63,454 nt of DNA from positions 1 through 63,454 of the IMG/VR virus record IMGVR_UViG_3300046517_000593; one strand, written 5' to 3'. Shown here one piece after another: positions 30,175-53,393 of this stretch. The notes under the pieces are model-generated. The model was not told the DNA's origin, made no database searches, and saw only the letters and a program-made list of their open reading frames with translations. The position numbers and the translations under genes were made by a program. How positions within the stretch are numbered: the stretch's first letter is position 1; each line of letters begins with the position of its first letter. The stretch comes from a virus.

Positions 30175-31092
30175 TCAAGCTGCGATTCGTTCGATAAATT
30201 CGTAAACCTTTTCCCACGGGTCCAAAGCTTCGTTGGCCGTAAGTGTATCACCGCTGAACTTATACTTCGATTCACCATCGTTCTGCGAAGCAAGCAACGC
30301 TGCTCTCAAATCAGATGAAGTTATCGGAGGTGAAGCCTGGAGACTATCGGCTATCCCAACATCCTGAGATTCGACTGTTTCGTCAGCCGTCATTACACCC
30401 AAAGCAATCGCATCCTGCCGGTCAATGTCAAAAACATCCATGCCACTGTTAAACGCAAAAGGTGGAAAAGGGTTTCCGAGTGTGTCATCGTAGCCGCCAG
30501 CACCATCGCCCAAGTTTTGCCAAACATCTGAATCCTTCGTTGCAATCATTCGCCCATCGTAAAGCTCACCACCCGCAGCTTGCCATCTGTCCAGCCATTC
30601 CCTTGGCACCTTCCTATCCTCTGCACGCGCTAGCTCCCAGGCCGGATAGGCGTCAAGCACGTCTTGATTCTGGCTTTGTTGATAATGCCCCCAACCGTAA
30701 GCAAGGTCAGCATTAGTATTAAGCACCAGGGTAAGTCGTTGGTCACTAAAAAGGTCTTGGATTGTGCCAGATTTGCCCTGTGGCGCTTCGTAGCCGATAG
30801 ACTGTCCAAACTCCTTAAGGTCAGCCCTTGCGCTCGCCAGATTGAATCCTTGCTCCACTATTACCCCACCACGTTCGATTGTCTCAGGCTGGAGAATCGA
30901 GTTAATCAAATCCTGAATGCGTTGAAGAATCACAGCATTCTCATTTCTGGCTGAAAAGAAAGCCATTCTCTTAATATCAGCATCCAACTGCGAAAGCTGT
31001 GCTGAACTCAACGAAGTCGGAAGCAAAGCCTTAATCGCATTCGATTTCAGAATCTCCGACAAAGGCTGGATGCGTTCAAGAAGTGTGTTCAT
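30175..31092 (-). CDS. minor head protein, Mu F / SPP1 gp7-like (tentative)
   Basis: 305 aa. YPAWELARAEDRKVPREW...GNPFPPFAFNSG resembles the conserved core of head morphogenesis proteins. Confidence 0.4.
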   Translation of the reverse strand: MNTLLERIQPLSEILKSNAIKALLPTSLSSAQLSQLDADIKRMAFFSARNENAVILQRIQDLINSILQPETIERGGVIVEQGFNLASARADLKEFGQSIGYEAPQGKSGTIQDLFSDQRLTLVLNTNADLAYGWGHYQQSQNQDVLDAYPAWELARAEDRKVPREWLDRWQAAGGELYDGRMIATKDSDVWQNLGDGAGGYDDTLGNPFPPFAFNSGMDVFDIDRQDAIALGVMTADETVESQDVGIADSLQASPPITSSDLRAALLASQNDGESKYKFSGDTLTANEALDPWEKVYEFIERIAA

Positions 31093-36208: not shown

Positions 36209-36417
36209 GAGATAAAAGGATGCCCGATTAAACTCAACAAAATGTTCACGAGAACGACAACGGTCAGCAATACGAGAATCACCGTTCCTATTTTCATCCA
36301 AGGTTCAGGCGGAGCTATCTTATTCAAGGCCCACCAAAGCACCCAAACAATGATTCCCCAAATTACGAGCACGAAAAGCGTGTTCAATAAGGCTTCTCCG
36401 CTGATTAGCATCATCAT
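36199..36417 (-). CDS. small two-TM membrane protein
   Basis: LFVLVIWGIIVWVLWWAL and IGTVILVLLTVVVLVNILLSLI. Confidence 0.55.
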   Translation of the reverse strand: MMMLISGEALLNTLFVLVIWGIIVWVLWWALNKIAPPEPWMKIGTVILVLLTVVVLVNILLSLIGHPFISWH

Positions 36418-36426
36418 AAATTCCTT

Positions 36427-36951
36427 TCAGGGGCTGGCCCAAATCTCTCCTTGGACGTTCTTGAACCAAGGCCACGCACGAGCCGCATTCGTCGGCAATG
36501 GTCCGTTCGGTAGCTTTATTCCGCTCGGCCATGTCATCAGATTCGACGCTCCATTAAAAATCTCAATCACAAACTCATCTCCAACTGCCATCTGCCCCAT
36601 TGTGAAAACCGTTGGTTGATTAACAAATTTGAAATAGTCCATCCGCGTGCCCGGCATTGGGGTAGTCAGGATGTTATTCGTCAACTCCATGCTCGGACGC
36701 GGAACACTGTTTGTCGCTGTGATGAAAACGTAGTTCGTCACTGTGCTGAATACATAGTTGGTGACGTAAACATAATTCGTCCAGGTAACTACTACTCCAC
36801 CGTTAGCCAAATTGCTTGACGGAGGAAAGAACGGGCAATCAACCACAAACTGACCATTGATTAACTGAACTGGAGTGCGTGCAAATTGAAGCCCCTGCGC
36901 TTCGGCAAATCGACACGCTAGTAAATTGAGTATGACCAGAAATATTTTCAT
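36427..36951 (-). CDS. exported protein, unknown function
   Basis: MKIFLVILNLLACRFAEA-QG signal peptide. Confidence 0.6.
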   Translation of the reverse strand: MKIFLVILNLLACRFAEAQGLQFARTPVQLINGQFVVDCPFFPPSSNLANGGVVVTWTNYVYVTNYVFSTVTNYVFITATNSVPRPSMELTNNILTTPMPGTRMDYFKFVNQPTVFTMGQMAVGDEFVIEIFNGASNLMTWPSGIKLPNGPLPTNAARAWPWFKNVQGEIWASP

Positions 36952-37688
36952 GGACCTGTAATTACAACTTCTGCTTTTGCAACCGGACTGTTAGTGGGGT
37001 TACCGTGATGGCCTTTACCAGACGAATCAATAATCGAACCTACTCCCGTTATCGTAGCTCCATCGGTGAAGTCGTTAAGCTTCCAATAACACTCAGGCAA
37101 GATTGAACACATCAGAGGAAAGTCTGCCGTTCGAGAAAACGCGAGCTTATTGATATCCGCAGCCGTAACTACATTCGTATACATAGCCACTTCAGTTATG
37201 CGACCATCAAACGTGTTAGCAGTATTCAAATCATTCCCGATGGTGAGGGAATCCGCAGCATTGTCAGTTGGTGTTTGGCCGTTGGTCGTCGTGGCGTAAG
37301 AAGCCTCAACTCCGTTCACGTAAATATGGCAATTTGCAGCGTTCGTTGAACCATCCCAAGTCATAATGAGATGATTCCAAATATTGGTCACCCAAGCGTC
37401 ATTGCTCGTCAACCGCGTAAGCACCGTCCCACCTCCAACCGTAAAGCGCACCGCGTGGGGGGATGAGCACTTCAAAATATTCTGACCTTTACGCGCAAAG
37501 ATTCCTGCATTGGCTTCCCCATCGCTCGACGCAATGAACCAAGCCGAGTAAGTGACCGCACTGTTCTCCTTGTAGATAGCATCCGATAACGTCCCGAATC
37601 CCAAGATGTCATTCACACCATCAAACAGAACCGCTGCCCCAAGGCAGCGGCACAGTGAGACGATTAAAAATGTAATCGCTATCCTCAT
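36948..37688 (-). CDS. exported LamG (concanavalin-like) domain protein
   Basis: MRIAITFLIVSLCRCLGA leader. LFDGVNDIL...WNHLIMTWDG...IYVNG...FDGRITEVAMY. Confidence 0.65.
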   Translation of the reverse strand: MRIAITFLIVSLCRCLGAAVLFDGVNDILGFGTLSDAIYKENSAVTYSAWFIASSDGEANAGIFARKGQNILKCSSPHAVRFTVGGGTVLTRLTSNDAWVTNIWNHLIMTWDGSTNAANCHIYVNGVEASYATTTNGQTPTDNAADSLTIGNDLNTANTFDGRITEVAMYTNVVTAADINKLAFSRTADFPLMCSILPECYWKLNDFTDGATITGVGSIIDSSGKGHHGNPTNSPVAKAEVVITGP

Positions 37689-38740
37689 TTTCTGAAATAC
37701 TCCAACATCACATCACCCCTCACTCGAATGTCATTCAGCGCGGACGGTGTAGTGCTCGTAATCCTAATGGCTACTGTATCACCAGCAGCCATCGAGTCCA
37801 CGGTCGTCAGAGACATGACCAACACTTCCGGAAAATTGAGAGTCCCTGGAACAGCTTTCGAACCGGTATTCGCAGTATCGTAAGACTCTGTATCAGCCGC
37901 AAGCGCATCGCCAGGAGTTTGGGCCCAAACGCTGATTGAAAATGAAGCGCTATTGGTGATTGCCCCTGAACACGAAAATGGAATCCTTAATTGCGGACTG
38001 CTCCCATAATCTTGCGGTAGCGTGAACTGAAAATAAGCTGTCTCGTTCGTCGCAAATGCTAGTCTCTTCAGTCCCGTAGTCGAAACATACTCCAGTCTTG
38101 CCGGACTCGTTGTGGGTAGCGTTACTTGCGAAATAGGAAGCCTCACTTGGGCCATCGACCTACCTTCAAGGGAACCTTTAATCCTGCTCCCGTCTTGGAA
38201 GAAATGATAGATACCAATTATTCCAGATACCTGCTCAAGCGGTGGCTGAGTCGAAGTTCCGCTGAAGGTCCAGTAAACGGTATTCGTAATCGTGAGCGTG
38301 AAAGCGCCCTGATTCGTAATCGTGAGGTTAATCGGATGACCATTAGACCAATTCGTTATTCCGAGAGTCAAGTTACCGGCCATTGTCCCTGTCCACTCTG
38401 AAGCAAGTGAAGCGTCGATGTTAATCGTCCCCTGATTCGTTCCGATATCCAAAGTTGGGTAAATACTATTCCCGATGAAAAACACGTTCGTCAGAGACAC
38501 GTTCGGGCCGATGGCAACATTCGTATTACCGGTTCCGGTTTGCGTGAACTGGTCTGAAAAATTGTAGGTCGTCCCTCCAATCAAACCCAATCCAGATAAA
38601 CCTGATAGCGGCACAACATCGCCGTTGCCATTCACGTAACTTCCGGGGTCGCCCGTGAAAGGGATTATTTGTTGCTGAGCGTTAACCGAAAGAGCAATCA
38701 ACGCTAAAGCAAAAACCAGAAGTTTTTTTAAGTGGATCAT
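37685..38740 (-). CDS. exported beta-rich protein with jelly-roll-like C-terminus
   Basis: MIHLKKLLVFALALIALSVNA-QQQ signal peptide. The start codon lies in the conserved 22-nt cassette. Confidence 0.65.
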   Translation of the reverse strand: MIHLKKLLVFALALIALSVNAQQQIIPFTGDPGSYVNGNGDVVPLSGLSGLGLIGGTTYNFSDQFTQTGTGNTNVAIGPNVSLTNVFFIGNSIYPTLDIGTNQGTINIDASLASEWTGTMAGNLTLGITNWSNGHPINLTITNQGAFTLTITNTVYWTFSGTSTQPPLEQVSGIIGIYHFFQDGSRIKGSLEGRSMAQVRLPISQVTLPTTSPARLEYVSTTGLKRLAFATNETAYFQFTLPQDYGSSPQLRIPFSCSGAITNSASFSISVWAQTPGDALAADTESYDTANTGSKAVPGTLNFPEVLVMSLTTVDSMAAGDTVAIRITSTTPSALNDIRVRGDVMLEYFRK

Positions 38741-38747
38741 TTGATCC
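38734..38747 (+). repeat. 14-bp palindrome GGATCATTTGATCC, copy 3 of 5
   Basis: Within the 22-nt cassette 38730-38751. It carries the ATG of 37685..38740. Confidence 0.9.
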
Positions 38748-38749
38748 CT

Positions 38750-39184
38750 TTATTTCACGAGAGCGTGAATGACGATGTTAGAGAGACACCCGTTTGTCGT
38801 TGGATTCTCAATCGATGAAAGCCTGAGATACTGATACCCCTGACAACCGATATTCGTCCAGCCTGTTACCTCGGTGGTATCGTTCAGCGTAAGCGGAAAT
38901 CTGAATCGCGCATCCTTGTAATACATCGAATCATTGATGCTCACGTCAAACACTAGTGTAATCGTGCCACCTCCAGGCGTAGCCGCATTTGTCCACGCAA
39001 CTCCAGTCCCACGAAAGAACAAGCTCACCTTATTAGCCGCAGCGAGCACTGGAATACTCGAACTCGCCGTCGTGTTCGTTTGAACCGGTGGAACCTTATT
39101 CGTCGAAAGCGTCAGAAGCGTCACCGTCTGAGCCGACGCACTCAATCCGAAAACCATCAACAAAAAACTGAGTATGAATTTCAT
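38750..39184 (-). CDS. exported small protein
   Basis: MKFILSFLLMVFGLSASA-QT signal peptide. Confidence 0.6.
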   Translation of the reverse strand: MKFILSFLLMVFGLSASAQTVTLLTLSTNKVPPVQTNTTASSSIPVLAAANKVSLFFRGTGVAWTNAATPGGGTITLVFDVSINDSMYYKDARFRFPLTLNDTTEVTGWTNIGCQGYQYLRLSSIENPTTNGCLSNIVIHALVK

Positions 39185-39264: not shown

Positions 39265-40242
39265 TTACGAAATAGTGAGCTGACGAACTCCGAGCGTGGA
39301 AGTCATTACCACGTCGCTATACATCTCAACAGTAATATCGATGTTCTTCATCGAAACTTGCTGTTCGTAAACACGCGTCTTGGTGCCGCCAATGGTTGCA
39401 GTCGTGAACCGCTTGATGTTGGACGGGTCGAACGGAGTTGCGTTCGGCTTCGTGAGGTAGACTAGCACCCGGTTGCCACCGAGAATTGAAGTCTTGGTTG
39501 AAGGGCCGGTCTGGTAATAGCTCCGAGCTACGTAGCCGCGTTGCAGACCACAGAACTGAGCAACCTGGTCAACCGCCTGACTTGCCGAAGCAAAGCCGCC
39601 TGCGGTATTCTGTGCGCGATGCGATACGATACGCTTGCTCCAAGCTGTAAGGTCATAAAGCACGTTGCTCGCTGGAACGCCCACGAGTGAATTGAATGTC
39701 ACAGCCTCGTTCATCACGTCTTGGTCCGGGTCTTTTCCGGCAGTCGTGTCCCATGTTTTAGCCGTGTTGGTCGCAGCCGCCGAAAGCAGCGTGATAGCGC
39801 GGCGAATTTCATTTCGCAGCAAGCGTTCCATCAAACGGGAAACAGTAAGCTCCCTCCAATTCGAGGACTGGTCCACATTGTCCATGTCCACTCGAACGGT
39901 CAGCCCCTTGTTCTTCGTGGTGCCGTTAGCCTTCGTGCTGGTGTATTCCACCCGCTTGAAGTCGGCTCCGATTGCTCGAATGTCGTCAGTCTCCGAAATG
40001 AAGGCCTCAATATTCGGGAAAGTCGCATATTCGAACCGGCGGCTCGTCGGAACTTCAGGTGCGAGAAAATCAAGCAACGCCTGAAGGTTCTCCTGGTCAG
40101 TCCAGCCGGTCGAGTAAGCCGTCAATGGCTCGCTGAAAAAAGCTTCAACGAATCGGCTGGAGGCATTCGCTGCGCATATCACGTCAGCAGCCTGTCTCCC
40201 CGTATCCTCCGGCATTTCATTTACAAAAGCGTGGTCATTCAT
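39265..40242 (-). CDS. major capsid protein (Mu gpT-like position)
   Basis: 325 aa from the ATG at 40242. It follows protease, scaffold and decoration genes. The A-rich leader is AAACAAAATAAAAAT. Confidence 0.6.
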   Translation of the reverse strand: MNDHAFVNEMPEDTGRQAADVICAANASSRFVEAFFSEPLTAYSTGWTDQENLQALLDFLAPEVPTSRRFEYATFPNIEAFISETDDIRAIGADFKRVEYTSTKANGTTKNKGLTVRVDMDNVDQSSNWRELTVSRLMERLLRNEIRRAITLLSAAATNTAKTWDTTAGKDPDQDVMNEAVTFNSLVGVPASNVLYDLTAWSKRIVSHRAQNTAGGFASASQAVDQVAQFCGLQRGYVARSYYQTGPSTKTSILGGNRVLVYLTKPNATPFDPSNIKRFTTATIGGTKTRVYEQQVSMKNIDITVEMYSDVVMTSTLGVRQLTIS

Positions 40243-40270
40243 ATTTTTATTTTGTTTCTGAATTTGCCGA

Positions 40271-40771
40271 TTACGCGAGAGGCGCAAACGCGAGGCACGG
40301 AGTAATTTCGATAACATCGCCAGTCGCCCCGGATGCCTTCAAGGCTTTCCCGACTACGTAACCAGTGGATACAGCCGTCTTAACAGTCCCGTCGCCGTTC
40401 GACTGAACAAAAGCGTCAACCGCTATCACCCCGGTAGCAATAACGCGCTGAGTGCCCTTTACCGCTCCAAGGACAGCGATACTAATCGGGTCTCCAAGCA
40501 AATCAGCCTGGTCTTGAGCGATGCCGATGATTTTATCTGTAGCGCCCGCACTGACGGCAACGTGGTTCTCATCGGAACCGGTCTTTACGAGGTGGTATCG
40601 CGTGATTGCCGCATCAGCCAAATAAGTAACATAACCATCACCATGAACACCCGCATTCGGAGAGTTCGCTGCATTGGCCATGTTGAGGACTTCTCCGCGC
40701 TTCCGGTAAGCAAGCCACGCGCAGGAGAAAATGGCCAGCAGGAGCACCGCTCCAAGCATTAGGTAATTCAT
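40271..40771 (-). CDS. head decoration protein (DUF2190-like) carrying a hydrophobic N-terminal leader
   Basis: Body YHLVKTG...IIGIAQD...GDPISIAVLGAVKG...GDGTVK...YVVGKALKASGATGDVIEI. The leader MNYLMLGAVLLLAIFSCAWLAYRKRGEVLN precedes MAN. Confidence 0.55.
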   Translation of the reverse strand: MNYLMLGAVLLLAIFSCAWLAYRKRGEVLNMANAANSPNAGVHGDGYVTYLADAAITRYHLVKTGSDENHVAVSAGATDKIIGIAQDQADLLGDPISIAVLGAVKGTQRVIATGVIAVDAFVQSNGDGTVKTAVSTGYVVGKALKASGATGDVIEITPCLAFAPLA

Positions 40772-41895: not shown

Positions 41896-42960
41896 TTAAG
41901 GCAGCACTGCTGCCAACTTTTCTCCGTGTGTCTTAGGATTCCTCATCTGAGCCATCGCCAAATCCCTAGAATACGGAGAAGTCGTATTTTGAATGTCGGA
42001 CATACCTGCCTGAGCCTCAGGATGAAACTGACTGTGAGGCGAATTGAGAATGGCTTGAAAATGACCACGAGCATCAGCATAAGCTTGCTGCGCCTGTTCA
42101 GGATTAGTATTCAAATCGTAGGCGCGAGCCGTTCGAAGTGAAGCATTCCCATTATCCAATCTTTTCTGAGCATCCTCAGCCGTCATCTCTGCTGACTCTT
42201 GAGTCGGTGATTCGGTCGCCTCCTCCGCCGGGTCTTCTCCGGCTTCACTCATTACGTTTCCGAAATGACGAAGCATGGCAACGGTCAAAAACCGCTTCTC
42301 GTTCACGCTCTGGTCAGCCGCGATTTTACCGCAGATTTTCTTAGCGCTATCCTCGTCATGTCCGCCTCCGGAATCAGTCTGCATGTAAGCTACGCAGCCA
42401 TCAAAACCACCTTTGAAACTTCCATCCGAATTTTTATAATCGGACTCATTTGCCGTGGTTACTGGCGGAACTGGTATGTTTGGCTCATTCGTGAAACCGA
42501 CCGACTTGAGCTTGAACGGACGCCAAACACCTTTTGCATTCGGGTCTTCCTTCAGGAACCAGTTTACCGAATGACCATGAAAAGCTTCATCTGAAATCAG
42601 CTTCTCGCCCTCTGCCCCAAATCTCACCCCGGCCCAAAGACCATCGTTACGAGCTTCGAGCGTCTTAATGCGCCCGTAAGCTTTTCCGTCCTTGTAACGG
42701 TCGCTGAAAGCAGGGTGGTCGGGATGACCGATAAAAAATGGTAGACCAATCGTTTTGTGCGCGATGTTCGTGATAGAATTGAAGCTCTGAACAATGTTAT
42801 CAGCATCTTGTTTTTGGATCCTTTGAAGACCTTGCTGATTCGGCCAATCACCGAACGGACTGAGCATCACCCAGCGAAGCTTAGTCGCCTCGTTAGGAGC
42901 CGAAAACTCATTTACAAACAGGATTGAAGGAAACTCGATTGTGCCAATCACGACGCACAA
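41896..42960 (-). CDS. Mu gpI-like head maturation protease
   Basis: RWVMLSPFGDWPN...DADNIVQSFN...GLPFFIGHPDH...AYGRIKTLEARNDGLWAGVRF resembles Mu-like prophage I proteins. The start is uncertain (TTG at 42960 or GTG at 42951). Confidence 0.55.
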   Translation of the reverse strand: MCVVIGTIEFPSILFVNEFSAPNEATKLRWVMLSPFGDWPNQQGLQRIQKQDADNIVQSFNSITNIAHKTIGLPFFIGHPDHPAFSDRYKDGKAYGRIKTLEARNDGLWAGVRFGAEGEKLISDEAFHGHSVNWFLKEDPNAKGVWRPFKLKSVGFTNEPNIPVPPVTTANESDYKNSDGSFKGGFDGCVAYMQTDSGGGHDEDSAKKICGKIAADQSVNEKRFLTVAMLRHFGNVMSEAGEDPAEEATESPTQESAEMTAEDAQKRLDNGNASLRTARAYDLNTNPEQAQQAYADARGHFQAILNSPHSQFHPEAQAGMSDIQNTTSPYSRDLAMAQMRNPKTHGEKLAAVLP

Positions 42961-42989: not shown

Positions 42990-43160
42990 TTACCGTGTGC
43001 GCACACCAGTTTTACGCTGCTGCTCATTGGCCGCTTCTCTAAGCTTTCGCTTGGCCCACTCGGACATATTTTCCCCACCGGCCTCGGCAATAATTCGCTT
43101 ATCAGTCGGAGTAACTCGAATGAAAATTCTCTCGCTGGCCTTTTCCGGGTTGTGGCTCAT
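42990..43160 (-). CDS. ribbon-helix-helix (MobC/CopG-like) small protein
   Basis: The ATG at 43160 overlaps the upstream TGA. IFIRVTPTDKRIIAEAGGENMSEWAKRKLREA. Confidence 0.5.
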   Translation of the reverse strand: MSHNPEKASERIFIRVTPTDKRIIAEAGGENMSEWAKRKLREAANEQQRKTGVRTR

Positions 43161-45013
43161 CTGAAATTTCCCTTCCCATTTAATCTTACTGATCCACCCC
43201 AATTATTATTTCCAATTTGAACAGTTGTTCCCTGAAGAGGATGAGGGTAGGTGTAAGGAGTATAATATAGAGTCCAAGTATTAGGAGCAGTAGCTTTATA
43301 CAACACTCCATCAGCCCCGTTTTGCTGGACTCCATAAGGATTAGATGTGCTAGTATTCCATGAACCTTGATCTGTTGCAAAATATCCTACTCCCGTCGTG
43401 CAAGTGGCAGGACGATTGGCGATGGTGCCCCATCCAGTCCCAGAGGTGCCGTCAAATGGACTCGTCGGAGATGTCTGAATCCCGCTCGCCTGCGCGTAGT
43501 AATCTCGGTCGGAAGCAATCCTGTTGGTGTCCGCATTGCTATATGCCGTTACTGTAGGCGTGGCCGTATTGTTGAACACGTAAACAGGCTCCAGCGCTTG
43601 ATTCGGCCAGGCAATCGTTCCCGTAGTGGAATTTATCTTTGTTGGATGACTCCCGGTTAACAAATCGCCGCGGCCACGCCCGGTCTGATCGATTGCCGGA
43701 TATCCGTAAGCAGTCGTATTTCCGTCCCATGCGGACCCGACAAAATAAGCGGCTCCAGTAAGGGGAGCTCCGGTATGCCCGCCATTCTGCAAGGTGATTG
43801 AAGTTGTTGAAATTACTGACGCAATCCCCGCAGTTGGACCAGGGGAGGGTTCCTGATCGAGCACCCCGACGGCGGTCATACCGACGATGTATATCATTGT
43901 CCCTGCCGGCCACAGCAAGCTGAAATCCGTGCCGCCTGTTTTGGTGACAGCGGTCGCCGTCACAGATACCGTTCCGGTCGCTACCGGCACAGGTCCAGCA
44001 TAACCCCATCCCGTTGGATTCGGGCTTTGCGGATACGTGATCGAGTTCTTGCGAACCGTGTTCAGGGTGATGAGAGATTGAATGGCTCCAGTCTCGGCGG
44101 TGTTACCCCATACCAATGAGGTCCCACCTTGGGTATCTGCCATCGCCCTGGCATTGCGTTCGGTTATTGATTCATTGGCTGCCAGTGCGTAAAGATTTCC
44201 GTAAGTTTCCGCCGCCCGTCCACCTCGGTCATTTCCGGCATGGCCGGTGGCGTGAATTTCTCCACCGGAGCAAAAATAAAGCGTATTGAATCGACAAACG
44301 GCCTTCCCTCCTCCGGTCATATCCCAGACGCGAGACGGTATATCTCCAAAGACCAAAGATGCCGATCCACCGTTGATAATGTTATCCTCCAGATAGAGGA
44401 AGTCAGACGTTCCAAATCCTGTGTCTGCCGCCCACGTCTCGTCACCGACTAAACTGGAGCCGCTCCTGTAAATATAGAGCGATGAATTTCCTGCGTGCGA
44501 CATGATGCAGTGATCCACGACGCCAGTGAGATTAAAGAAGACTGGCATGTGTGTTCCGCTCGTAAGCGCAGGACTGTAGATCTGGTTATCGAACCTGCAA
44601 TGGTCCACGCGAATTTGTCCGGTGTTGGTTGGCCCAAGAAATCGGATGACGCCTTCCTCGTCTTTGATGGCTCCATTTCCTCCGATCACGCTTATTCCAG
44701 AGAAGCGAAAAGTCCCGGAGGATGCTAATGTGATGTCGAAAATAGGGCTATTCCCTGGATTATTGTCCACGATTACCGTTTGGTCGCCGCCGCCCGTGGC
44801 CGTTGTGCCGGCTCCGATAACAGTAACATTGCTAGGAGCCGTCCATGCAATCCCGTAGGTCCAATTAGAAAGTCCTGCCGGAATGGAAAGAGTATCTCCC
44901 GCCGAAACCAGTTGCATCGCGTTGGACACCGCCACGGGTCCGGGATTGACCGCAATGATTGTTGCGGCCTTTGCAATGGAGCAAGAGAGCAGTAAAGCCA
45001 GAAACAATCTCAT
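43157..45013 (-). CDS. exported parallel beta-helix-like protein (polysaccharide lyase/hydrolase type)
   Basis: MRLFLALLLSCSIAKA-A signal peptide. Repetitive G/N/T-rich rungs. C-terminal YTPYTYPHPL. Confidence 0.6.
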   Translation of the reverse strand: MRLFLALLLSCSIAKAATIIAVNPGPVAVSNAMQLVSAGDTLSIPAGLSNWTYGIAWTAPSNVTVIGAGTTATGGGDQTVIVDNNPGNSPIFDITLASSGTFRFSGISVIGGNGAIKDEEGVIRFLGPTNTGQIRVDHCRFDNQIYSPALTSGTHMPVFFNLTGVVDHCIMSHAGNSSLYIYRSGSSLVGDETWAADTGFGTSDFLYLEDNIINGGSASLVFGDIPSRVWDMTGGGKAVCRFNTLYFCSGGEIHATGHAGNDRGGRAAETYGNLYALAANESITERNARAMADTQGGTSLVWGNTAETGAIQSLITLNTVRKNSITYPQSPNPTGWGYAGPVPVATGTVSVTATAVTKTGGTDFSLLWPAGTMIYIVGMTAVGVLDQEPSPGPTAGIASVISTTSITLQNGGHTGAPLTGAAYFVGSAWDGNTTAYGYPAIDQTGRGRGDLLTGSHPTKINSTTGTIAWPNQALEPVYVFNNTATPTVTAYSNADTNRIASDRDYYAQASGIQTSPTSPFDGTSGTGWGTIANRPATCTTGVGYFATDQGSWNTSTSNPYGVQQNGADGVLYKATAPNTWTLYYTPYTYPHPLQGTTVQIGNNNWGGSVRLNGKGNFR

Positions 45014-45813
45014 TGGGCACCCGCCGAATTGAGGGTTGAAATTTGACCGCTGGAAAGCTCGGTATTGTAGATTCGAATATCGTCAAGCTCTCCCCAGAAG
45101 GGTTGGCCAAGTCCTGCAAAAACTCCAATCCTGACCGCTTCATCGTGCAACAACGTGTTAGACAATGTTCCCGATGGGGCAACAGCGGGCGTCCCGGCAT
45201 TAACGTAAATTTTCACTCCGCTCGCAGCCGAGCTTCCACTGTAAGTGCCCGCGATGAAATACCACGTGCCCGCGATGATCGAGCCTCCTCCAGTTGCGGC
45301 GATCAATGCGTTTCCGGAAGAGTCAACGAGCGCAAATTTTAGCTGCGTGTTGTCGGTGTCGGCGGCAAAATTGTAACCCTGCACATTCCCGAAACTGTAG
45401 TTTTTTCCAAGAATGAAATGGCCACCAGAGGCTGACGCATTGACCTTGATCCAGAAAGTAATGCTAAACGTGTTCGTCCGTTCAAAGTCGAAATTACTCT
45501 CGTTGGCGACCGTGATCAGATCGTCGGTGCCGTCAAAAGTAAGGTCTCCATTGCTGTTTGGTCCAGTCCCCCACGCGGGACTCCCGGTGAGCGTTCCAGC
45601 GTTTCCATTCCCTGTGCTATCAGTCGCATTTGTTCCGCTGGCGTCGTTTAGCTTCCACCAACCGACGAGGGTTGTATCTCCAGTATTTGAAGCCGGAAAA
45701 CGCACGTCTTTGCGCCCTTGTAAGAGGACTTGCGGGAAAGCAATTCGCGGAGCCAGAACGAAAGGCACAAGCATCCCATTCCGAAGAATGAATTTGCGGC
45801 GGTTCATCACCAT
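45010..45813 (-). CDS. Tat-signal LamG-domain protein
   Basis: M(V)MNRRKFILRNGMLVPFVLAPRIAF (twin-arginine RRxFI). WWKLNDASG...DLTFDGTDD...TFWIK...WYFIAGTY...IYVNG...ELDDIRIYN. Confidence 0.65.
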   Translation of the reverse strand: MVMNRRKFILRNGMLVPFVLAPRIAFPQVLLQGRKDVRFPASNTGDTTLVGWWKLNDASGTNATDSTGNGNAGTLTGSPAWGTGPNSNGDLTFDGTDDLITVANESNFDFERTNTFSITFWIKVNASASGGHFILGKNYSFGNVQGYNFAADTDNTQLKFALVDSSGNALIAATGGGSIIAGTWYFIAGTYSGSSAASGVKIYVNAGTPAVAPSGTLSNTLLHDEAVRIGVFAGLGQPFWGELDDIRIYNTELSSGQISTLNSAGAQ

Positions 45814-47906
45814 GCGGTAGGTTCGGTGGCGCTTTCCTGATATCCCATATTGATGAGCCATAGTTCAGCCGATGAATTTAGCGTATCGGAAGCGTCTCCC
45901 GCGTCTCGATAGACTTCTATTACGGCCACGCTTCCCGCTGCGGGTGTCCCTCCAAAAGTCATCGCTCCAGTAGCTCCTGACTGTAATGGACGACTAGCAG
46001 TTTGAGCAGTATCAACTATGCTTACCGAAGTTCCCCAGGCGGTGTTTGGGTCTCCATTGTCGGGCAGGATTTTCCCATGTGCAAACCACTTCACGTCGCC
46101 GCTTCCGGTGGCGCTCCAAGTGAATTTTAATTTAACTGTTCCACCATCATAAGCTTCCGGCGTGTTGAAGATTCGCGTTATACGATTGGTCTGCGCGTCG
46201 GCGAATGAGTAAAGAGGAACGTCGAAATACCCAGTCCCCGCATAAGAGTTCGTCGCTTGAGTTGCAGAGTTCGTCCGATTGATCATCCACCCATCAGCCG
46301 GAATCGTGATGTTCCTCCAGACGCCAGTCCTGGTCCTCATAACATTTCCTGACCCGGTATAGGCTACGGAAGCGAGTGATTTATCCGCTGCTGTCACTAC
46401 TGCTTGCGAGGCTGTAAGAGCAGAGTTCGTCAAACCCGTCACTGTAAGAGTGCCGGACATTGTGTCTCCCGCCTTGAGAACGAAAGTAGAAATAGCAGTA
46501 ATGTTGGATTTCACGAAAGCCGTATTCGCGATTGTTGTGTCGCTATCTGACAGGACAACGTTCGGAGCCTGGGGGTCGCCTGTGAATGTTGGGCTAGCAA
46601 GTGGCGCCTTCAGGTTTAACGCGGAAACGAAGTTCGTAGCTCCGGCGATGAAGTTCGCTGCCGTTACAGTTCCACCCACGACAATGTTGCTCACGACCGT
46701 AAGACCGCCGACGTTCACGGAATTAGTCACGTTCAAATCGCTCATCGTATTCGTCCCAGTCCCGAGAACCGTAATGCTTCCAGCCGTCAAATTTGAAGTC
46801 ACGATCAAACTGCCTGCTGTCCCTCCATCAGCCAATAGAACTTTGCCAACGCCAGTCTCATCTGAAATCACGCCGGCAAACTGAGCGCTCGTTGTCGCTG
46901 CAAATTGACTCAATGGATTAGCTACAAGCGCATCTCCGGTTCCTGAGCCTGCATTCCCCAACTGAGAAATCATTTGCATATTCGTGCCGTCGTAAACAAC
47001 TTCTACCCACTGACCGGCTCGAATATCGTTATCCGAAAGGTCAGTTGTGATGCCTCCCACTGGCTTCTTGATAGTCTTAGCGCCGAGTGTATTGAGATTA
47101 ATGGTTGCCGCTCCCGTGTTCGCAGTGTTCGCTTTGAACCTGTAGTGAACACCTGTTACATAAGCCGTGATGGCCGGCGAAAGCGTAGCTGAATAAGTAT
47201 CGCTCCCACCAGCATCAGCAGCAAAAAACCCAGCGTCAAGAACATCAGCTTTAGTGAGCACGGTAAATAAATCCGTCGTCGCAAGCGTGCTGTTCGTAAG
47301 TAAATTGATGCTATCTGTAATCACCAACTTACTCGCTGTCGCATTCCTGAGCTTCACAAAATTTGTAATATCCAAGCTCGGACTACTCATACCGAAGAAG
47401 GATTGGATGTCTCCGTTCGTATAAACAAGCGCATCTACCGTTCCGTTATGACTCAACTCCAAAAAATCTTGAGCACCGGTTCCGCCTTGGAGCATCAATG
47501 TAGAAAAAGCAGTCGAGCTATTGTTAATCACTTTTGCCCTGCCTCCTGAATTCAATACGGCGAGAGTTACTGGACCAAGCAACGCACCGCTCGGAAAAAG
47601 AACTCCATTCGTCGGAATAACTCGATTGACAAAAATGTTCCCATCCATCGCTTCATTCGTGCCCGAAACTACATACCAAAGATTGCTAGTAGAGGAAAGC
47701 TTAAGACCAATGGCAGTCCACACTTGGGCATTCAAGTTAGTAACCTGAATCTTCACTGAATTAGTCTTTCCGCTTCCGTAATCCGTAGAGAGAAGCAGAG
47801 TATCCGTTGACTGCGCTAGATTCGTAGACACCAAATCACTCGGCCTCTGAGCAAGTGCGCCAAAAGAAATTAAACAGACTAAGACTATCCAAATTCGCGT
47901 TGTCAT
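45807..47906 (-). CDS. exported fibre-like beta protein with jelly-roll-like C-terminus
   Basis: MTTRIWIVLVCLISFGALA-QRP signal peptide. 699 aa, Thr/Ser/Gly/Asn-rich. Confidence 0.65.
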   Translation of the reverse strand: MTTRIWIVLVCLISFGALAQRPSDLVSTNLAQSTDTLLLSTDYGSGKTNSVKIQVTNLNAQVWTAIGLKLSSTSNLWYVVSGTNEAMDGNIFVNRVIPTNGVLFPSGALLGPVTLAVLNSGGRAKVINNSSTAFSTLMLQGGTGAQDFLELSHNGTVDALVYTNGDIQSFFGMSSPSLDITNFVKLRNATASKLVITDSINLLTNSTLATTDLFTVLTKADVLDAGFFAADAGGSDTYSATLSPAITAYVTGVHYRFKANTANTGAATINLNTLGAKTIKKPVGGITTDLSDNDIRAGQWVEVVYDGTNMQMISQLGNAGSGTGDALVANPLSQFAATTSAQFAGVISDETGVGKVLLADGGTAGSLIVTSNLTAGSITVLGTGTNTMSDLNVTNSVNVGGLTVVSNIVVGGTVTAANFIAGATNFVSALNLKAPLASPTFTGDPQAPNVVLSDSDTTIANTAFVKSNITAISTFVLKAGDTMSGTLTVTGLTNSALTASQAVVTAADKSLASVAYTGSGNVMRTRTGVWRNITIPADGWMINRTNSATQATNSYAGTGYFDVPLYSFADAQTNRITRIFNTPEAYDGGTVKLKFTWSATGSGDVKWFAHGKILPDNGDPNTAWGTSVSIVDTAQTASRPLQSGATGAMTFGGTPAAGSVAVIEVYRDAGDASDTLNSSAELWLINMGYQESATEPTAW

Positions 47907-48190
47907 TGAATTGGTGTGTCATTCAGCAAATCGGCTCCTGTCGCATCATTCAATAAATGTGCTCCAGTGGCATCATGCAGTAAGAAATTTGTTACGGTTA
48001 TTCCCGGAACATCGATTACCGTTCCTCCTATTTTAGTAATACCCGGTGCGCCTATTTTAAGCGTCGTGTCTGTCGTGAAAAGAATCACCTGAGCCACAAG
48101 ATTGAATGCAACCGTTGCAACTAATATGAATGCAATAATCCCTTTCAAACTATCAATAGCAACGAGCCCGAATCCAAAAATCTTTTTCAT
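47903..48190 (-). CDS. small membrane-anchored protein with a 9-aa tandem repeat
   Basis: The ATG at 48190 overlaps the upstream TGA. IIAFILVATVAFNLVAQVILF. C-terminal HDATGAHLLNDATGADLLND. Confidence 0.5.
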   Translation of the reverse strand: MKKIFGFGLVAIDSLKGIIAFILVATVAFNLVAQVILFTTDTTLKIGAPGITKIGGTVIDVPGITVTNFLLHDATGAHLLNDATGADLLNDTPIQ

Positions 48191-48555
48191 GGAATTAATT
48201 CGCACGAAACTCCATCGCTCGCCGTCTCAACATCAATCCACCAGTTTGTCGGACAAACTCCATTCTGCTGGTCGGTGATAATGATTCTCTCGCCCGGCTG
48301 AATATAAAATCCACCCGCATCATTAGTGGGATTCTGCTGCAACCATACCTTGCTCGTGTTGGTTGTCCTAGCCGATTTGTTTCCAGTAAACACAATCGTC
48401 CTGTAATGCGTATCGTTATTCGTCGAAAGCTGCTCAGGCACCGAGGAAGAGGAGACAGTTTTGATTAGCTCTGGCAATGGGAATATAGCCATTAAGTTGA
48501 ATGTCACAATCATCACAACAATGACCATCGCAAACTGACTCAAGAACTTTTTCAT
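48187..48555 (-). CDS. signal-anchored small protein
   Basis: MKKFLSQFAMVIVVMIVTFNLMAIFPL. Confidence 0.55.
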   Translation of the reverse strand: MKKFLSQFAMVIVVMIVTFNLMAIFPLPELIKTVSSSSVPEQLSTNNDTHYRTIVFTGNKSARTTNTSKVWLQQNPTNDAGGFYIQPGERIIITDQQNGVCPTNWWIDVETASDGVSCELIP

Positions 48556-48558
48556 TTA

Positions 48559-50310
48559 TCATCTTTCGACATGTCGAGCCGTATTCAGCCCGGACGTTAA
48601 CCCGTTAATTGCCATCGTCGCAATAATTTCTCTCAATGCCTGACCATTGGCTGGACTCTTATTGATGGTCTTGAGCATTGAAGGAAGCTTATCTTTCAAA
48701 TCCAAGAGCGCGGCTTGCATTTGTTCCGCGTTGCTCATCTCTGATATTGCAAGCACGCGCTCTCGCAGTGGTCGCACTGCCAGGGAAGTGTCTTTCGCGA
48801 GCCTCACCATCGCGTTCCTCAAAAATACTTTCGACTGAGCGATAGCATTCGCTGTATTGAGCGAAGCTGTAGTCGCTGAAATATCCAAAGCTCCCTTGGC
48901 TCCGAAAGTATCCTGCCCTTGTTGTCCAGTAGGAGGTGGAGTAGCCGTCGGTTCGCCTTCCTGAGCTTCAACTCGATTGTATCGCTCCAGCATATCCTCA
49001 ATTCCAAGCTTCGCACCGCATTGCAAAAGAAATTGGTCAATCTCAATCTCAAGCTGAACATCCTTCTTCTTTGGAATATTCAATTTGACGTAAGCTTTCG
49101 GAGTTGTGGAAGGTCCGAAATGCCACTTCAAAACCGGAATATCCACGTAATGATTGAGCGTTTCGGAAATGATTTGACCGTAGTGCTGTTCAATCATTTC
49201 GGCCTCTTCACCCTGCAAACTCGCTCCTCGACCACCCGAAGACCCTCCACCATGAGACGAGATGGTTGACAAGTCGGCACCTCTCGCCAGAGCGCAAATC
49301 GCTCTGTCCATGTAATCCACTAACGGCTCATACGGAAGTTGACCTGTTGAGCCAAAATCAATCTTCTCAATCTTGTCGTTCACGCTCGCGATGATTGCGC
49401 TGTTCGGACCTACATTTGAGAGCACATCCTGAAGCGCATTCCAGCCGGCTGAACCTTGAGCGTGATTCGTGAGCCCAATCGGCACCGGCATACCATTGCG
49501 CTCATTGTAAATCAACCAATCACGTATCGCGATGGTTTTATACATCCAGGCTACGGATACGGCTTCCATGATGCCCTCGCCTACTGTAACCATCCATTGC
49601 CCATCGCGAAGCGGTTCCCCATCCCATTGGTAATTACCAGCAAACCTGAGCGAACCAGTGCGATTCTCGAAGAACCAGAGCGGCACGAAAATGAATTTGG
49701 CAGTCAACAAATCGCTACCCCTTGGATCAAGAATCATCTCGTGAACCGCATACTTCTTTGGACCAGCATCCATCATTTGATGAATCAATGAATGGAATCC
49801 ACCTATCTGATTGCGGTCTACAGCGTTCGTGCACTGAAGATTCGAATAGAAATACCTGAGAGCCTCGCTGTGAGCCTGAGCTTCAGCCTGGTCAGCACCT
49901 TCTACCTCGACAATCTCATACTCCCTACGACTCACCGTCATCTTGAGCTTGCCAAGCACTGACTTGCTTACAGCATCGCGATTCTCGATTGCATCCATCG
50001 TGAGACTAAACGAACGCATCGTTCCAGTGGCCCACTCACTAAGCTGCTGAGTAAGTGACTCGGGAGTAAGGAATGAAATCGGATTAAATCGGCTCTGCTT
50101 ATACTGGTAGACAGAAAATGGAGTAATCAGCGAATCGGTCTGCGATACCTGCTGGACATCAGGCTTGCCGAGCCTAGCTGCTACCGCTTCAGGAGGAGGG
50201 CTGAACTGACCACCGATGAGGCTATTAACCGGAGTAGACGGAATCGCATTAGCGACCGCACCTCCAGACTCATTTTCATTAGCCACGTCGCAAGCTGTTA
50301 CGACAAGCAA
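48559..50310 (-). CDS. portal protein (Mu gp29 / DUF935-like)
   Basis: 583 aa, downstream of the terminase. The start is uncertain (TTG at 50310). Confidence 0.6.
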   Translation of the reverse strand: MLVVTACDVANENESGGAVANAIPSTPVNSLIGGQFSPPPEAVAARLGKPDVQQVSQTDSLITPFSVYQYKQSRFNPISFLTPESLTQQLSEWATGTMRSFSLTMDAIENRDAVSKSVLGKLKMTVSRREYEIVEVEGADQAEAQAHSEALRYFYSNLQCTNAVDRNQIGGFHSLIHQMMDAGPKKYAVHEMILDPRGSDLLTAKFIFVPLWFFENRTGSLRFAGNYQWDGEPLRDGQWMVTVGEGIMEAVSVAWMYKTIAIRDWLIYNERNGMPVPIGLTNHAQGSAGWNALQDVLSNVGPNSAIIASVNDKIEKIDFGSTGQLPYEPLVDYMDRAICALARGADLSTISSHGGGSSGGRGASLQGEEAEMIEQHYGQIISETLNHYVDIPVLKWHFGPSTTPKAYVKLNIPKKKDVQLEIEIDQFLLQCGAKLGIEDMLERYNRVEAQEGEPTATPPPTGQQGQDTFGAKGALDISATTASLNTANAIAQSKVFLRNAMVRLAKDTSLAVRPLRERVLAISEMSNAEQMQAALLDLKDKLPSMLKTINKSPANGQALREIIATMAINGLTSGLNTARHVER

Positions 50311-51472: not shown

Positions 51473-52915
51473 TCATAAGACCCTCCTTGAATACCTCGGC
51501 ATGCCATATTCACGCCGGTCGATTGCTTCAACTCGTGTAGCCATCACATTCGTATTACCAGACAAATATTTATAAGCACTGCTCACACCGTCAACACAAT
51601 CGTCATGGTCGCTGCCAGGAAACTGGTCGCACTGGTCAAAGAAGTCGCCATTCCAATCCGCACGCACACAAAATATCAATCCATCCTGCATCCGGCTACC
51701 CCAAAGGCTTGCTCGCATCTCTTTATTACCTTCGGGGATATCCTCGAATATTACGTGCTGCTGTAGCTCTGGATGAACCTTCAAATCCTGGTAGTAACCT
51801 TTCTGTGGTCCGTTGCTCTCGATTGTCATTATGACTTTTGTTCCGTCTTGGTGCGCCGTTGAGATAATCTCGCGCTTACCATCCGGCCATTTACCTTGCC
51901 GCCTCTTGACGTGCAGAATGTAGTAATTCCCTTTCCCATCCATGCCCACCTTCGCGCCAGCCAAATAATCCGCTGACTGCTTGTCAGAGAAAGCCAAATC
52001 CCAAGCCCTGACTATTTGAACAAGCTCAGGCACTGAGTCGGCATCAATCATCACAAACTTGGAACTATCCAAAACATTGCCTTCATCCGGTCGAGGGCGC
52101 CCTTGATATTTCGCAGCAAATGCTTTTGAGCCGACACCCTTCTTAATCCCGTCTAAAGCTTCGAGCGGATATTTCTCAGGCCAGAGAGCTTCACCTTGCT
52201 CGGAGATAGCTGGCATGTGAAGCGTTTCCCACTTCTCGCCGTCTCCAGCCTCTGAAGCCTGCATCAATCTTCCGGCCAAATCCTCGGAGTGCCATCGCGA
52301 CATGATGAGCACGATTGCACCATTCGGGTCCAGCCTATCTCTGAGTGTCTGCTTATACCAATCCCATACCGCATCACGACGCACCTTGGAATTAGCCTCA
52401 ACATTGTCTGCTATTGGGTCATCAATAATTATCAGATTTGCCCCACGGCCAGTCGGGGCCGCTCCAACGCCTAAAGCACGCATCGTGGACCGATAAGCGC
52501 CTAGAAGTGCCCAATCCTGCGTGCTGCTGAAATCTTGGTTGACCTCCACGTTCGGGAACAGTTCTCGATAACGATTATTACCAATGATGCAATCCCGGAC
52601 ATTCCTGCTGAAACCTAAAGCGAGATTCCCGCTGTGGCTGGTTAGGATGACTGAATCTTTTGGATGGCGGCTGAGATACCACGTCGGGAATTTCTCGGAA
52701 CAAAGGGAACTCTTCCAATGACGTGGAGGACAGGTTACAAAGAGCCGCTTAATCTCACCTCGTTCGACTGCCTCCAGTTTCTCAGAAATCCTCCGAAGAT
52801 GCTCAGCCTCGTAATTCTGAGCCGCATTCGGGTCTATATAGCACGAGAACTCAGTAAGATAATTGCGAGCGTGATTAACCCGAATGGCTCTCGCCATTTG
52901 AATCGCCTGCTCCAT
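51473..52915 (-). CDS. terL: terminase large subunit
   Basis: CPPRHWKSS (P-loop-like), IIIDDPIAD, nuclease-domain WDLAFSDKQSADY ... SDHDDCVDG. The start is uncertain (ATG at 52915 or 52897, TTG at 52948). Confidence 0.8.
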   Translation of the reverse strand: MEQAIQMARAIRVNHARNYLTEFSCYIDPNAAQNYEAEHLRRISEKLEAVERGEIKRLFVTCPPRHWKSSLCSEKFPTWYLSRHPKDSVILTSHSGNLALGFSRNVRDCIIGNNRYRELFPNVEVNQDFSSTQDWALLGAYRSTMRALGVGAAPTGRGANLIIIDDPIADNVEANSKVRRDAVWDWYKQTLRDRLDPNGAIVLIMSRWHSEDLAGRLMQASEAGDGEKWETLHMPAISEQGEALWPEKYPLEALDGIKKGVGSKAFAAKYQGRPRPDEGNVLDSSKFVMIDADSVPELVQIVRAWDLAFSDKQSADYLAGAKVGMDGKGNYYILHVKRRQGKWPDGKREIISTAHQDGTKVIMTIESNGPQKGYYQDLKVHPELQQHVIFEDIPEGNKEMRASLWGSRMQDGLIFCVRADWNGDFFDQCDQFPGSDHDDCVDGVSSAYKYLSGNTNVMATRVEAIDRREYGMPRYSRRVL

Positions 52916-53393
52916 TGGAAGCGCCGTTATGTCCGATTCTGTTTTCAAGTAACTCTAACATCTTCCTTCCGGCTTCCCGGCTCAATGGTTTTTCTATCGT
53001 GAAAGTCTCGCTCTGGATAGGACCGCCTTCAGGCCCGCTGATTTGCTGGACTCTCGGAGCATCCAATCCCAGAAGCTCATCAATCCTTTGCCGGGCGCGC
53101 AATCGGGCGCCTGGGCTAGCCTTGCCTCCTGGTGCTGCGATGGCTTGGTAGAATGCGAATGAATCTTTTCTGTGCTGGTCTTTATTCTGGCCAAACTGCT
53201 TGCGGATGGCATCCTTCGCACGAGAGATATATTCTTCGCATTGGCGGGCTGTGATGCCATATTTAGCAAGGATAACGCGTTTAATTTGACCTTTTAGGAC
53301 ACCTTGACTGAGCAAAGATTGGACAAGCTCGATACGTTCCTCGATTTGTTCGTAAGTAGCTTTACGGAAAGGCTTGATGTCTTTGCGTTTCAT
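52875..53393 (-). CDS. terminase small subunit candidate
   Basis: 172 aa directly upstream of TerL. HTH-like ILAKYGITARQCEEYISRAK. Confidence 0.5.
   Translation of the reverse strand: MKRKDIKPFRKATYEQIEERIELVQSLLSQGVLKGQIKRVILAKYGITARQCEEYISRAKDAIRKQFGQNKDQHRKDSFAFYQAIAAPGGKASPGARLRARQRIDELLGLDAPRVQQISGPEGGPIQSETFTIEKPLSREAGRKMLELLENRIGHNGASNGAGDSNGESHSG

Follow-up and report, generated by a model that had tools for sequence, protein, structure and literature searches.

Several phages encode exported proteins within their late or tail regions, among them Lom and Bor of lambda, Llp of T5 and Cor of T1, phi80 and N15, and two of these, Llp and Cor, inactivate the receptor and thereby protect the infected cell or the progeny. 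An accessory insertion with its own promoter and terminator is termed a moron (PMC3594210). Among the carbohydrate-active enzymes (CAZymes) of prophages, signal peptides are predicted in about 5% (PMC13507307), and phage copies of secreted enzymes usually come without the leader of the cellular forms, the GH32 enzymes of Bacillus phages being an example (PMC4595243). A cellular counterpart with a tailspike-like fold, WceF of Pantoea stewartii, carries a twin-arginine translocation (Tat) signal and trims the chain length of stewartan (PMC7949094). Here, we analyze a five-gene array, cassette A (43157-48555), in the virus record IMGVR_UViG_3300046517_000593, the whole 63,454-nt stretch of which is referred to below as the window. 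We lean, by a modest degree, toward the view that cassette A is a late-expressed exported module that binds and cleaves the host’s surface polysaccharide, most plausibly freeing progeny and destroying receptors. What leads us there is the inserted state of the cassette, the leaders of its proteins, their glycan-related folds, the ancestry of one of them in exopolysaccharide loci, the mobile recurrence of the array in other phages and the presence of a separate and complete tail gene set.

The minus strand carries all genes of the window, and all coordinates of the window given here refer to that strand. Cassette A comprises gene 1 (48187-48555, 122 aa), gene 2 (47903-48190, 95 aa), gene 3 (45807-47906, 699 aa), gene 4 (45010-45813) and gene 5 (43157-45013, 618 aa), and these five open reading frames (ORFs) stand exactly where a preliminary description of this DNA had placed them: between a Mu-type portal gene upstream (48559-50310; PF06074, E 1.5e-51; phrog_113) and the gene of a Mu I-like head-maturation protease downstream (41896-42960; phrog_328, E 2e-9, with a weak match to PF10123, Mu-like_Pro, below the cut-off). 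The translational coupling claimed there was found as well, every junction being a 3-nt gap or an ATGA/TGATG overlap. Specifically, gene 1 starts 3 nt past the portal stop, the starts of genes 2, 3 and 5 lie within ATGA overlaps, and gene 4 overlaps the stop of gene 3 by 1 or 7 nt. A sixth coupled ORF follows in the downstream flank (42990-43160), joined to gene 5 by an ATGA overlap and encoding a 56-aa RHH-like protein (CopG/Arc-type).

Relatives of the phage were recovered by a two-sequence alignment of its head-completion protein (30175-31092), which yielded 57 IMG/VR contigs with the same head-gene order. In 25 relatives in which both flanking genes were identified, the portal and protease genes are at most 806 nt apart (median gap -3 nt), as opposed to 5,599 nt here. 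Because the portal and protease genes abut in these 25 relatives, cassette A is an accessory insertion, and probably a mobile module outside the head-assembly pathway; the synteny comparison with related Mu-like-head phages that the preliminary description had proposed as a check thus identifies it as inserted DNA. In the closest relative, contig L154, whose portal is 58% and capsid 69% identical, the genes run portal, RHH, protease, and the 56-aa protein is 49% identical to the 53-aa protein encoded at this position (2591-2752 of L154). Since the L154 gene directly follows the portal gene, the RHH-like gene of the window belongs to the backbone and not to the insert, marking the right-hand edge of the insertion. 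The conservation of a gene for a DNA-binding (RHH-like) protein within a head operon is unusual in its own right.

Like a moron, cassette A sits between genes that are adjacent in related phages. The promoter and terminator of its own that complete the definition of a moron (PMC3594210) were not detected, which is weak negative evidence: neither sigma-70-like promoters (10 vs 19.7 expected) nor intrinsic terminators (17 vs 19.6 expected) were enriched, in a scan that may not fit the promoters of the host. Nor does cassette A stand out compositionally, its GC content being 0.41-0.52 vs 0.48 for the genome and its GC content at third codon positions unremarkable. From the lack of both a compositional anomaly and an excess of promoters and terminators it follows that cassette A has long been integrated into the late operon and does not form a transcription unit by itself. 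We also considered a recent acquisition of the cassette, which is unsupported since the composition is not anomalous. Coupling is shown by the gene overlaps, and we infer that the cassette is co-transcribed with the late head genes.

Export was assessed through rules and homologues, using a conservative signal-peptide rule that considers positive charge, an uncharged core and the residues at -3/-1. This rule flagged 8 of the 10 genes of cassette A and a sister array, cassette B (described below), compared with 2 of the 71 other ORFs (Fisher p = 6e-8). The preliminary description had ascribed export signals or membrane anchors to all five proteins of cassette A, one of them of the Tat type; all five indeed possess hydrophobic leaders in N-in/C-out orientation with positive charge before the core, while the Tat identity of gene 4 is only half supported. 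As marks of a leader handled by the general secretion (Sec) pathway and signal peptidase I (SPase I) we took a charged n-region, an uncharged core of 7-15 residues, and small residues at -3/-1 with cleavage within ~15-35 residues; genes 3 and 5 show all three marks and gene 1 the first two. The leader of gene 3 (MTTR-IWIVLVCLISFGALA/QRP, the slash denoting the predicted cleavage site) ends in GALA/Q and is by sequence a canonical SPase I-type signal, and that of gene 5 (MRLFLALLLSCSIAKA/AT) starts with MR and ends in AKA/A. Gene 1 begins with MKK followed by a 20-residue hydrophobic core (signal-rule score 4.5), and its relatives carry canonical AxA signal peptides. Gene 2 contains a single transmembrane helix preceded by lysines, i.e., a membrane anchor and not a cleavable signal. 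The Kyte-Doolittle hydrophobicity of the core is 1.83 in gene 4 vs 2.6-3.0 in the other four genes.

The leader of gene 5 behaves as a separable part of the protein. Its sequence varies within the family, conservation sets in sharply at the predicted mature N-terminus, three homologues (P0022, P0023 and P0025) begin with MAT exactly at the predicted cleavage site, and at least 67 of 120 family members pass the conservative rule. Taken together, the leaders of cassette A look like export signals. With Lom, Bor, Llp and Cor as precedents, and with signal peptides predicted in about 5% of prophage CAZymes (PMC13507307), the earlier view that such leaders are unexpected in a late operon was overstated. 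A side observation concerns the cleavage sites themselves: sites of the form AxA/Q are frequent, accounting for 4 of the 9 predicted sites in the window and for 21 of the 48 in signal-like relatives of gene 3 (hits P0125-P0178). Glutamine at +1 is a preference described for Bacteroidota, yet the closest cellular relatives of gene 5 are found in Verrucomicrobiota.

Gene 4 encodes a protein with a LamG lectin fold (Laminin_G_3, PF13385; 77.9 bits vs a gathering cut-off of 27.6, E 1.2e-21), as had been proposed, behind a leader of the RR type, M(V)MNRRKFILRNGMLVPFVLAPRIAFPQ. The sequence N-R-R-K-F-I at residues 2-7 of the trimmed protein fits the pattern Z-R-R-x-hydrophobic-hydrophobic, and the core is less hydrophobic than those of the Sec leaders, as expected for Tat. 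TATFIND-type rules further call for a core without charges and of weak hydrophobicity, at least ~13 residues long, downstream of the RR and ahead of an AxA-type site. In gene 4, the uncharged stretch NGMLVPFVLAP comprises 11 residues and is followed by an arginine, and no AxA comes after it (..RIAFPQ..), so that both the core length and the cleavage site depart from the rule. A relative, P0249 of contig L151, has a glutamine in place of this arginine and would pass the core-length rule. P0249 is 89% identical to gene 4 over leader residues 1-38 and 31% in the LamG domain, and the end of the gene upstream is 81% identical too; as this likeness continues into the upstream gene, the RR leader would belong to a single recombination block common to the two phages, and that it has been conserved is no proof of a Tat function. 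Gene 4 is also 57% identical to a LamG protein encoded beside a beta-helix gene in contig L006, which has a plain Sec leader; altogether, six close homologues (the L006 orthologue and five others) have plain Sec leaders and two are leaderless. The claim of one Tat substrate therefore stands as to the motif and falters on the short core, the missing AxA site and the mostly plain Sec leaders of the orthologues; gene 4 may be exported by Tat.

Gene 5 is the putative polysaccharide-cleaving member of the cassette. Its AlphaFold2 (AF2) model (predicted local distance difference test, pLDDT, 74) is a right-handed parallel beta-helix, and Foldseek likewise confirmed the beta-helix that the preliminary description had suspected, matching PL6 lyases, tailspikes, WceF and RbmB at the level of fold only (template modelling, TM, scores 0.2-0.3). 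In the model, the mature chain starts at the helix cap directly after the leader, without an adaptor domain. Searches of Pfam, PHROG and NCBIfam with gene 5 returned no match, a family profile run against PDB sequences was also blank, tblastn against 50,697 GenBank phages gave none, and no homology to a characterized enzyme family (PL6, GH28, WceF and others) was detected. Within the family, which is large and unnamed and represented by 143 homologues, the invariant charged residues include D137, E209, D210, D231, R241, H254, R263 and E269, and gene 5 is a probable polysaccharide hydrolase or lyase. We also tried gene 5 as a lipoprotein, on account of its LLSC sequence, and rejected this, as the cysteine is not conserved and the AxA site is.

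Homologues of gene 5 were located in 79 genome loci, mostly of Acidobacteriota and Verrucomicrobiota, the closest (66-69% identity) being in Verrucomicrobiota. Among the 123 genes that lie no more than two genes away from a homologue in 32 loci, the prevailing kinds are GT2 (15) and GT1/GT4 (12) glycosyltransferases, AsnB-like amidotransferases (12-13), Wzy_C (7), Wzx and methyltransferases, with no phage family among the top 25 neighbor families. A homologue in Opitutaceae, for example, with the leader MKILVLFILAFALVHSANA/A, lies between an FkbM methyltransferase gene and a Wzy-like gene, near GT4, GT2 and a Wzx/MatE-like flippase, and the amidotransferases nearby resemble those of the XrtA/PEP-CTERM system. 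Some of the cellular proteins fuse beta-helix and LamG domains. The cellular homologues thus combine an export signal with a place in a polysaccharide biosynthesis cluster; the phage copy itself lies outside such a cluster. Based on the fold, the invariant charged residues and this genomic context, gene 5 is probably a phage copy of an exported enzyme that normally resides in Wzx/Wzy-type exopolysaccharide or O-antigen loci.

This context also bears on the idea that the cassette is an auxiliary metabolic module, whose secreted carbohydrate-active proteins digest environmental polysaccharides and so feed the infected cell. A beta-helix, a LamG and a carbohydrate-binding-module (CBM)-like domain are typical of secreted polysaccharide degraders, and both the glycoside-hydrolase auxiliary genes reported in soil viruses (PMC11924767) and the signal peptides of ~5% of prophage CAZymes (PMC13507307) speak for it. 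We nonetheless regard it as quite improbable: the cellular homologues lie in polysaccharide biosynthesis loci and not in utilization loci with transporters, the coupling to late head genes leaves little time for a nutritional benefit, the lack of any integrase found in a complete genome makes a lasting benefit in lysogeny unlikely, and gene 3 is built of phage-fibre modules.

Gene 3 is a mosaic, in which a signal peptide (ALA/QRP) is followed by a region rich in Ser/Thr/Asn, a shaft and a beta-sandwich. Its description as fibre-like was confirmed in part, through a tail-fibre shaft domain (aa ~214-325) and PHROG tail-fibre matches, and includes short matches to annotated tail fibres. Only the stretch ~214-325 is widely common, occurring in 118 of 120 matches, which comprise both leaderless proteins with typical tail-fibre N-termini and signal-peptide proteins of the AxA/Q type. 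The AF2 model of the full-length protein is poor (pLDDT 55.6), with two confident domains and a low-confidence Ser/Thr/Asn-rich region. The shaft superposes on the tail-fibre chain of Pseudomonas phage Pa193 (Foldseek E 8e-5, root-mean-square deviation 2.6 Å), and the C-terminal beta-sandwich (aa ~570-695) resembles CBM6/36/61 modules in Foldseek; comparison of the gene 3 sequence with those in PDB yielded nothing above noise. Contig L151 encodes a 2094-aa signal-peptide protein whose end shares 81% identity with the last 259 aa of gene 3. We also considered gene 3 as an exported copy of a virion fibre and rejected this, as it is unrelated to the phage’s own 476-aa fibre and to the second gene of cassette B. 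With the beta-helix of gene 5, the LamG domain of gene 4 and the CBM-like tip of gene 3, the earlier suggestion that the content of the cassette is directed at glycans is borne out.

Gene 1 consists of its leader and a ~90-aa beta-rich domain (motif KTV..TVPE..) and is 27% identical to a 126-aa protein heading the same cassette in the podovirus-like contig L003. Its family comprises 97 representative clusters, ~45% of which have a signal peptide or transmembrane leader and the rest none. The domain was considered as a universal part of such cassettes and rejected, since the window and L003 are the sole loci, of those fetched, that have it. Gene 2 is a bitopic membrane protein with lysines before its helix and an acidic outer tail; a 27-bp tandem repeat in 2.3 copies (47919-47980) encodes LLNDATGA in this predicted external tail. 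Neither protein matched Pfam, PHROG or NCBIfam, and no relatives of gene 2 were found; searching the cassette proteins against NCBIfam gave no names except for a sub-threshold LamG-type match.

Two of the three large proteins, the fibre-like and the LamG protein, thus have folds of the binding type, and the two small proteins could serve as membrane anchors of a complex, as would suit superinfection exclusion or receptor masking without catalysis, in which exported lectin- and fibre-like proteins would cover or obstruct the receptor polysaccharide of the infected cell, or its envelope. T5 Llp and Cor are precedents for exported receptor-blocking proteins encoded beside structural genes. We consider this account very unlikely, as the beta-helix family keeps many invariant acidic, basic and His residues in an enzyme-like manner, and its cellular relatives hold the position of chain-trimming glycanases in exopolysaccharide loci. 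In addition, a diderm host would call for a further secretion step, and the Pfam search showed no C-terminal sorting domain of the type IX secretion system or another kind.

The cassette is not confined to this phage. The order small signal-peptide protein, fibre-like signal-peptide protein, LamG and beta-helix recurs in four unrelated backbones at different positions: after the head-completion genes in L006 (Mu-like head), between the capsid gene and an adaptor gene in L089 (lambda-like siphovirus), after internal virion protein genes and before holin-like genes in L003, and beside lysis-like genes and an integrase gene in L001. LamG genes adjoin the beta-helix gene in the window, L003 and L006, and apparently on three more contigs. 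Across 55 distinct IMG/VR loci, signal-like leaders occur at 42% of the positions -1 relative to the beta-helix gene, 39% at -2, 28% at -3 and 19% at +1, vs a background of 4.1% (p = 4e-22), and the flanks of the arrays are mixed, with capsid, protease, head-morphogenesis, head-tail adaptor, endolysin and TerL genes. Judging by these arrangements, the cassette recurs and appears to move as a mobile array of signal-peptide genes.

The window itself holds a second such array. Cassette B (32207-39184) lies between the major capsid protein gene and the head-completion genes and consists of five consecutive signal-peptide genes (38750-39184, 37685-38740, 36948-37688, 36427-36951 and 32207-36301), the third of which encodes a LamG protein (PF13385, E 3e-21); one protein has 1364 aa. 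The gap from the capsid gene to the head-completion gene (W305) is 8,173 nt here vs a median of 1,023 nt in 15 contigs, with two relatives having inserts of 4.6 kb and 6.0 kb. Together, cassettes A and B make up ~20% of the genome. In L151 (3717-15839), homologues of genes from both cassettes stand in one contiguous array, which includes the 2094-aa signal-peptide protein, a NosD-like beta-helix protein ending in the C-terminal domain of gene 3, the LamG protein with the RR leader of gene 4, an SGNH/GDSL esterase-like signal-peptide protein, and a 738-aa signal-peptide protein that is 44% identical to the 1364-aa protein of cassette B.

Apart from the cassettes, the genome encodes a complete tail and receptor-binding set of the siphovirus type, resembling that of the Rhodobacter capsulatus gene transfer agent (RcGTA): a tape measure (23898-26837), a hub (19931-21676; PF09931 and PF09356), an NlpC/P60 protein (18765-19229), a 924-aa tail protein (15809-18583) and the 476-aa fibre (14190-15620). 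None of its members has a hydrophobic leader.

Some observations weigh against an exported glycan-cleaving module and lend themselves to an alternative, namely that the cassette proteins form part of the virion, as accessory fibres of the head or tail and as a tailspike depolymerase, with N-termini that are unused relics, temporary membrane tethers or part of an unusual loading route. Gene 3 does hold a genuine tail-fibre shaft domain and gene 5 a tailspike fold; cassette A lies inside a late structural operon without a detectable promoter or terminator of its own; in L003 the cassette occupies the expected tail-fibre slot, as judged from part of that genome; phage contigs L088, L115 and L145 contain leaderless members of the family of gene 5; and a decoration-like head protein and apparently the major tail protein of the window also bear hydrophobic N-terminal helices, in the opposite charge orientation. 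Still, we deem a virion role unlikely. The cassette leaders are N-in/C-out with AxA sites, an orientation opposite to that of the leaders on the decoration-like and tail proteins; a particle-binding domain is missing from the N-terminus of gene 5; the signal peptide of gene 3 stands where its leaderless homologues have fibre N-termini; and in cells, the homologues of gene 5 are exported enzymes encoded in exopolysaccharide loci. Moreover, phages differ in where the cassette is inserted, 25 relatives that share the head lack it, and the genome has, at another place, a complete tail and fibre set free of leaders.

The helices of the decoration-like and tail proteins merit description of their own. 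At the N-terminus of the decoration-like protein (40271-40771, between scaffold and capsid), a hydrophobic helix precedes RKR and lacks positive charge in front of it; the window shares this helix with at least 22 of 24 distinct relatives (among L154-L209). The ORF of the major tail protein (27794-28720) starts with a similar leader, 25 of 29 nt being identical between the two. Their charge pattern would keep the bulk of both proteins in the cytoplasm, and these leaders could be translated membrane tethers, propeptides or a regulatory element. It follows that hydrophobic leaders are not confined to non-virion proteins. We give scarcely any credence to the further notion that in these soil phages part of virion decoration takes place outside the cytoplasm or at the membrane, with Sec- or Tat-exported fibre-like, lectin-like and depolymerase proteins attaching at or after lysis; such a scheme would accommodate the membrane-tethering helices on the decoration-like protein (at least 22 of 24 relatives) and the major tail protein of the window. 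If true, it would constitute an assembly path not known for tailed phages.

Under the reading that we favor, an exported module acting on host polysaccharide, the five products would be made late along with the head genes, and the Sec pathway, with Tat perhaps serving one of them, would insert them into the cytoplasmic membrane or move them across it. Outside the cytoplasm, gene 3, through its CBM-like tip, and the LamG protein of gene 4 would bind the host’s surface polysaccharide, and gene 5 would cleave it, such that the polysaccharide of the infected cell would be stripped or shortened late in infection. Progeny could then escape the matrix and would be spared loss by re-adsorption to debris and to cells infected before; the function would be one of exit or receptor destruction. 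The signal peptide may, speculatively, have been kept because the proteins need to fold outside the cytoplasm. Further points count against this scheme: the structural matches of gene 5 stay at fold level, so that its catalysis and substrate are what we infer; a cytoplasmic enzyme would also be released at lysis, and the advantage of export is not explained with certainty; and the case for export is made from rules and homologues. The preliminary description had listed late-expressed exported enzymes that remodel the envelope or capsule among its possibilities, and this is favored by the exopolysaccharide-locus homologues, the insertion and the separate leaderless tail, leaving the interpretation overall partly supported; its other suggestion, a non-classical loading route for fibres, gained no direct support. 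We also weighed lysogenic conversion as the principal role and rejected it, as the genome is complete and no integrase was found.

As for the phage that carries the cassette, the window ends in an exact 127-bp direct terminal repeat (1-127 and 63328-63454), which indicates a complete phage genome of ~63.3 kb, terminally redundant or circularly assembled. It is a siphophage with a Mu-like head, whose head and packaging genes include those for TerL (51473-52948), the major capsid protein (39265-40317) and a scaffold-like protein, in addition to the portal and protease genes. Replication genes encode a primase-helicase, an SNF2 helicase, a methylase and ParB-like proteins; the complete genome yielded no integrase. 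The host is tentatively placed in Verrucomicrobiota because the closest cellular copies of gene 5 are there. A megablast of 14 kb against GenBank phages revealed no close relatives, single-protein IMG/VR scans with the portal or gene 5 gave no match, and of two metagenome scans, one of metagenome contigs with the portal gave no match and the other a single 2.3-kb contig.

Three further features of the genome were observed. A 22-bp unit is repeated four times at 5476-5562, with an inverted repeat (TGTCAAC..GTTGACA), inside an HTH_36/DnaD-like gene (5153-5965), and these units look like the iterons of replication origins. At 9729-9967, ~40 tandem copies of GCTCCC, forming an 18-bp super-unit, lie within an ORF (9723-9995) that would encode a Ser/Gly/Arg/Trp repeat protein. 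Lastly, a lysis-like cluster (12274-14140) contains two ORFs with lipobox-like leaders (..LLPAC and ..LFCSC) and two small holin-like transmembrane ORFs; the lipobox-like ORFs are candidates for spanins or lipoproteins, and the cluster is consistent with a diderm host.

Verrucomicrobiota and Acidobacteria are abundant, hard-to-culture soil bacteria, and if our reading is correct, a widespread, unnamed enzyme family links their exopolysaccharide loci with a mobile export cassette of their phages. It would likewise mean that phages can invest ~1/5 of their genome in proteins that act outside the infected cell’s cytoplasm and not in the particle, and it would offer a testable answer as to what viral carbohydrate-active auxiliary genes are: tail enzymes, nutritional genes or envelope-remodeling tools. 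The mature beta-helix proteins are, in addition, candidate specific depolymerases for the exopolysaccharides of Verrucomicrobiota and Acidobacteria. We found no description of a conserved multi-gene array of signal-peptide genes that centers on an unnamed beta-helix family from exopolysaccharide loci, occupies head modules as an insertion and is widespread in uncultured phages.

Each of the closest known systems shares part of this picture. Lom, Bor, Llp and Cor are, like cassette A, products of genes that encode signal peptides or lipoprotein signals and stand among structural genes as accessory insertions relative to related phages. They are, however, encoded by single small genes, often with a promoter and terminator of their own and often expressed from the prophage, whereas here five coupled genes (5.4 kb) are accompanied by a 7-kb cassette B, and the proteins of cassette A are large and glycan-directed, none being a lipoprotein. 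Tailspike and fibre depolymerases, such as those of P22, HK620, Sf6 and the Klebsiella phage protein Kp32gp38, share the beta-helix of gene 5 and the shaft modules of gene 3, and polysaccharide is the probable target of both; yet tailspikes have an N-terminal particle-binding domain, no signal peptide and a location in the tail module, none of which applies to cassette A. In the glycanases WceF and RbmB (Vibrio cholerae), and in those of the PslG/AlgL type, the likeness extends to a right-handed beta-helix without a particle-binding domain (WceF), and their position inside an exopolysaccharide cluster with an export signal is shared by the cellular homologues of gene 5. Between WceF and gene 5 there is no detectable sequence homology, the resemblance being one of fold (E about 2e-3, TM about 0.2), and WceF has a Tat leader where that of gene 5 is of the Sec type. 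Unlike the WceF-type enzymes, gene 5 is phage-borne and lies in a head operon with lectin-like and fibre-like partners. Finally, the soluble, non-virion polysaccharide-degrading enzymes of phages and other viral CAZymes are phage-encoded, degrade glycans and form no part of the particle, as would hold for gene 5; by comparison, gene 5 keeps its leader in most phage copies and travels in a conserved multi-gene array of signal-peptide genes.

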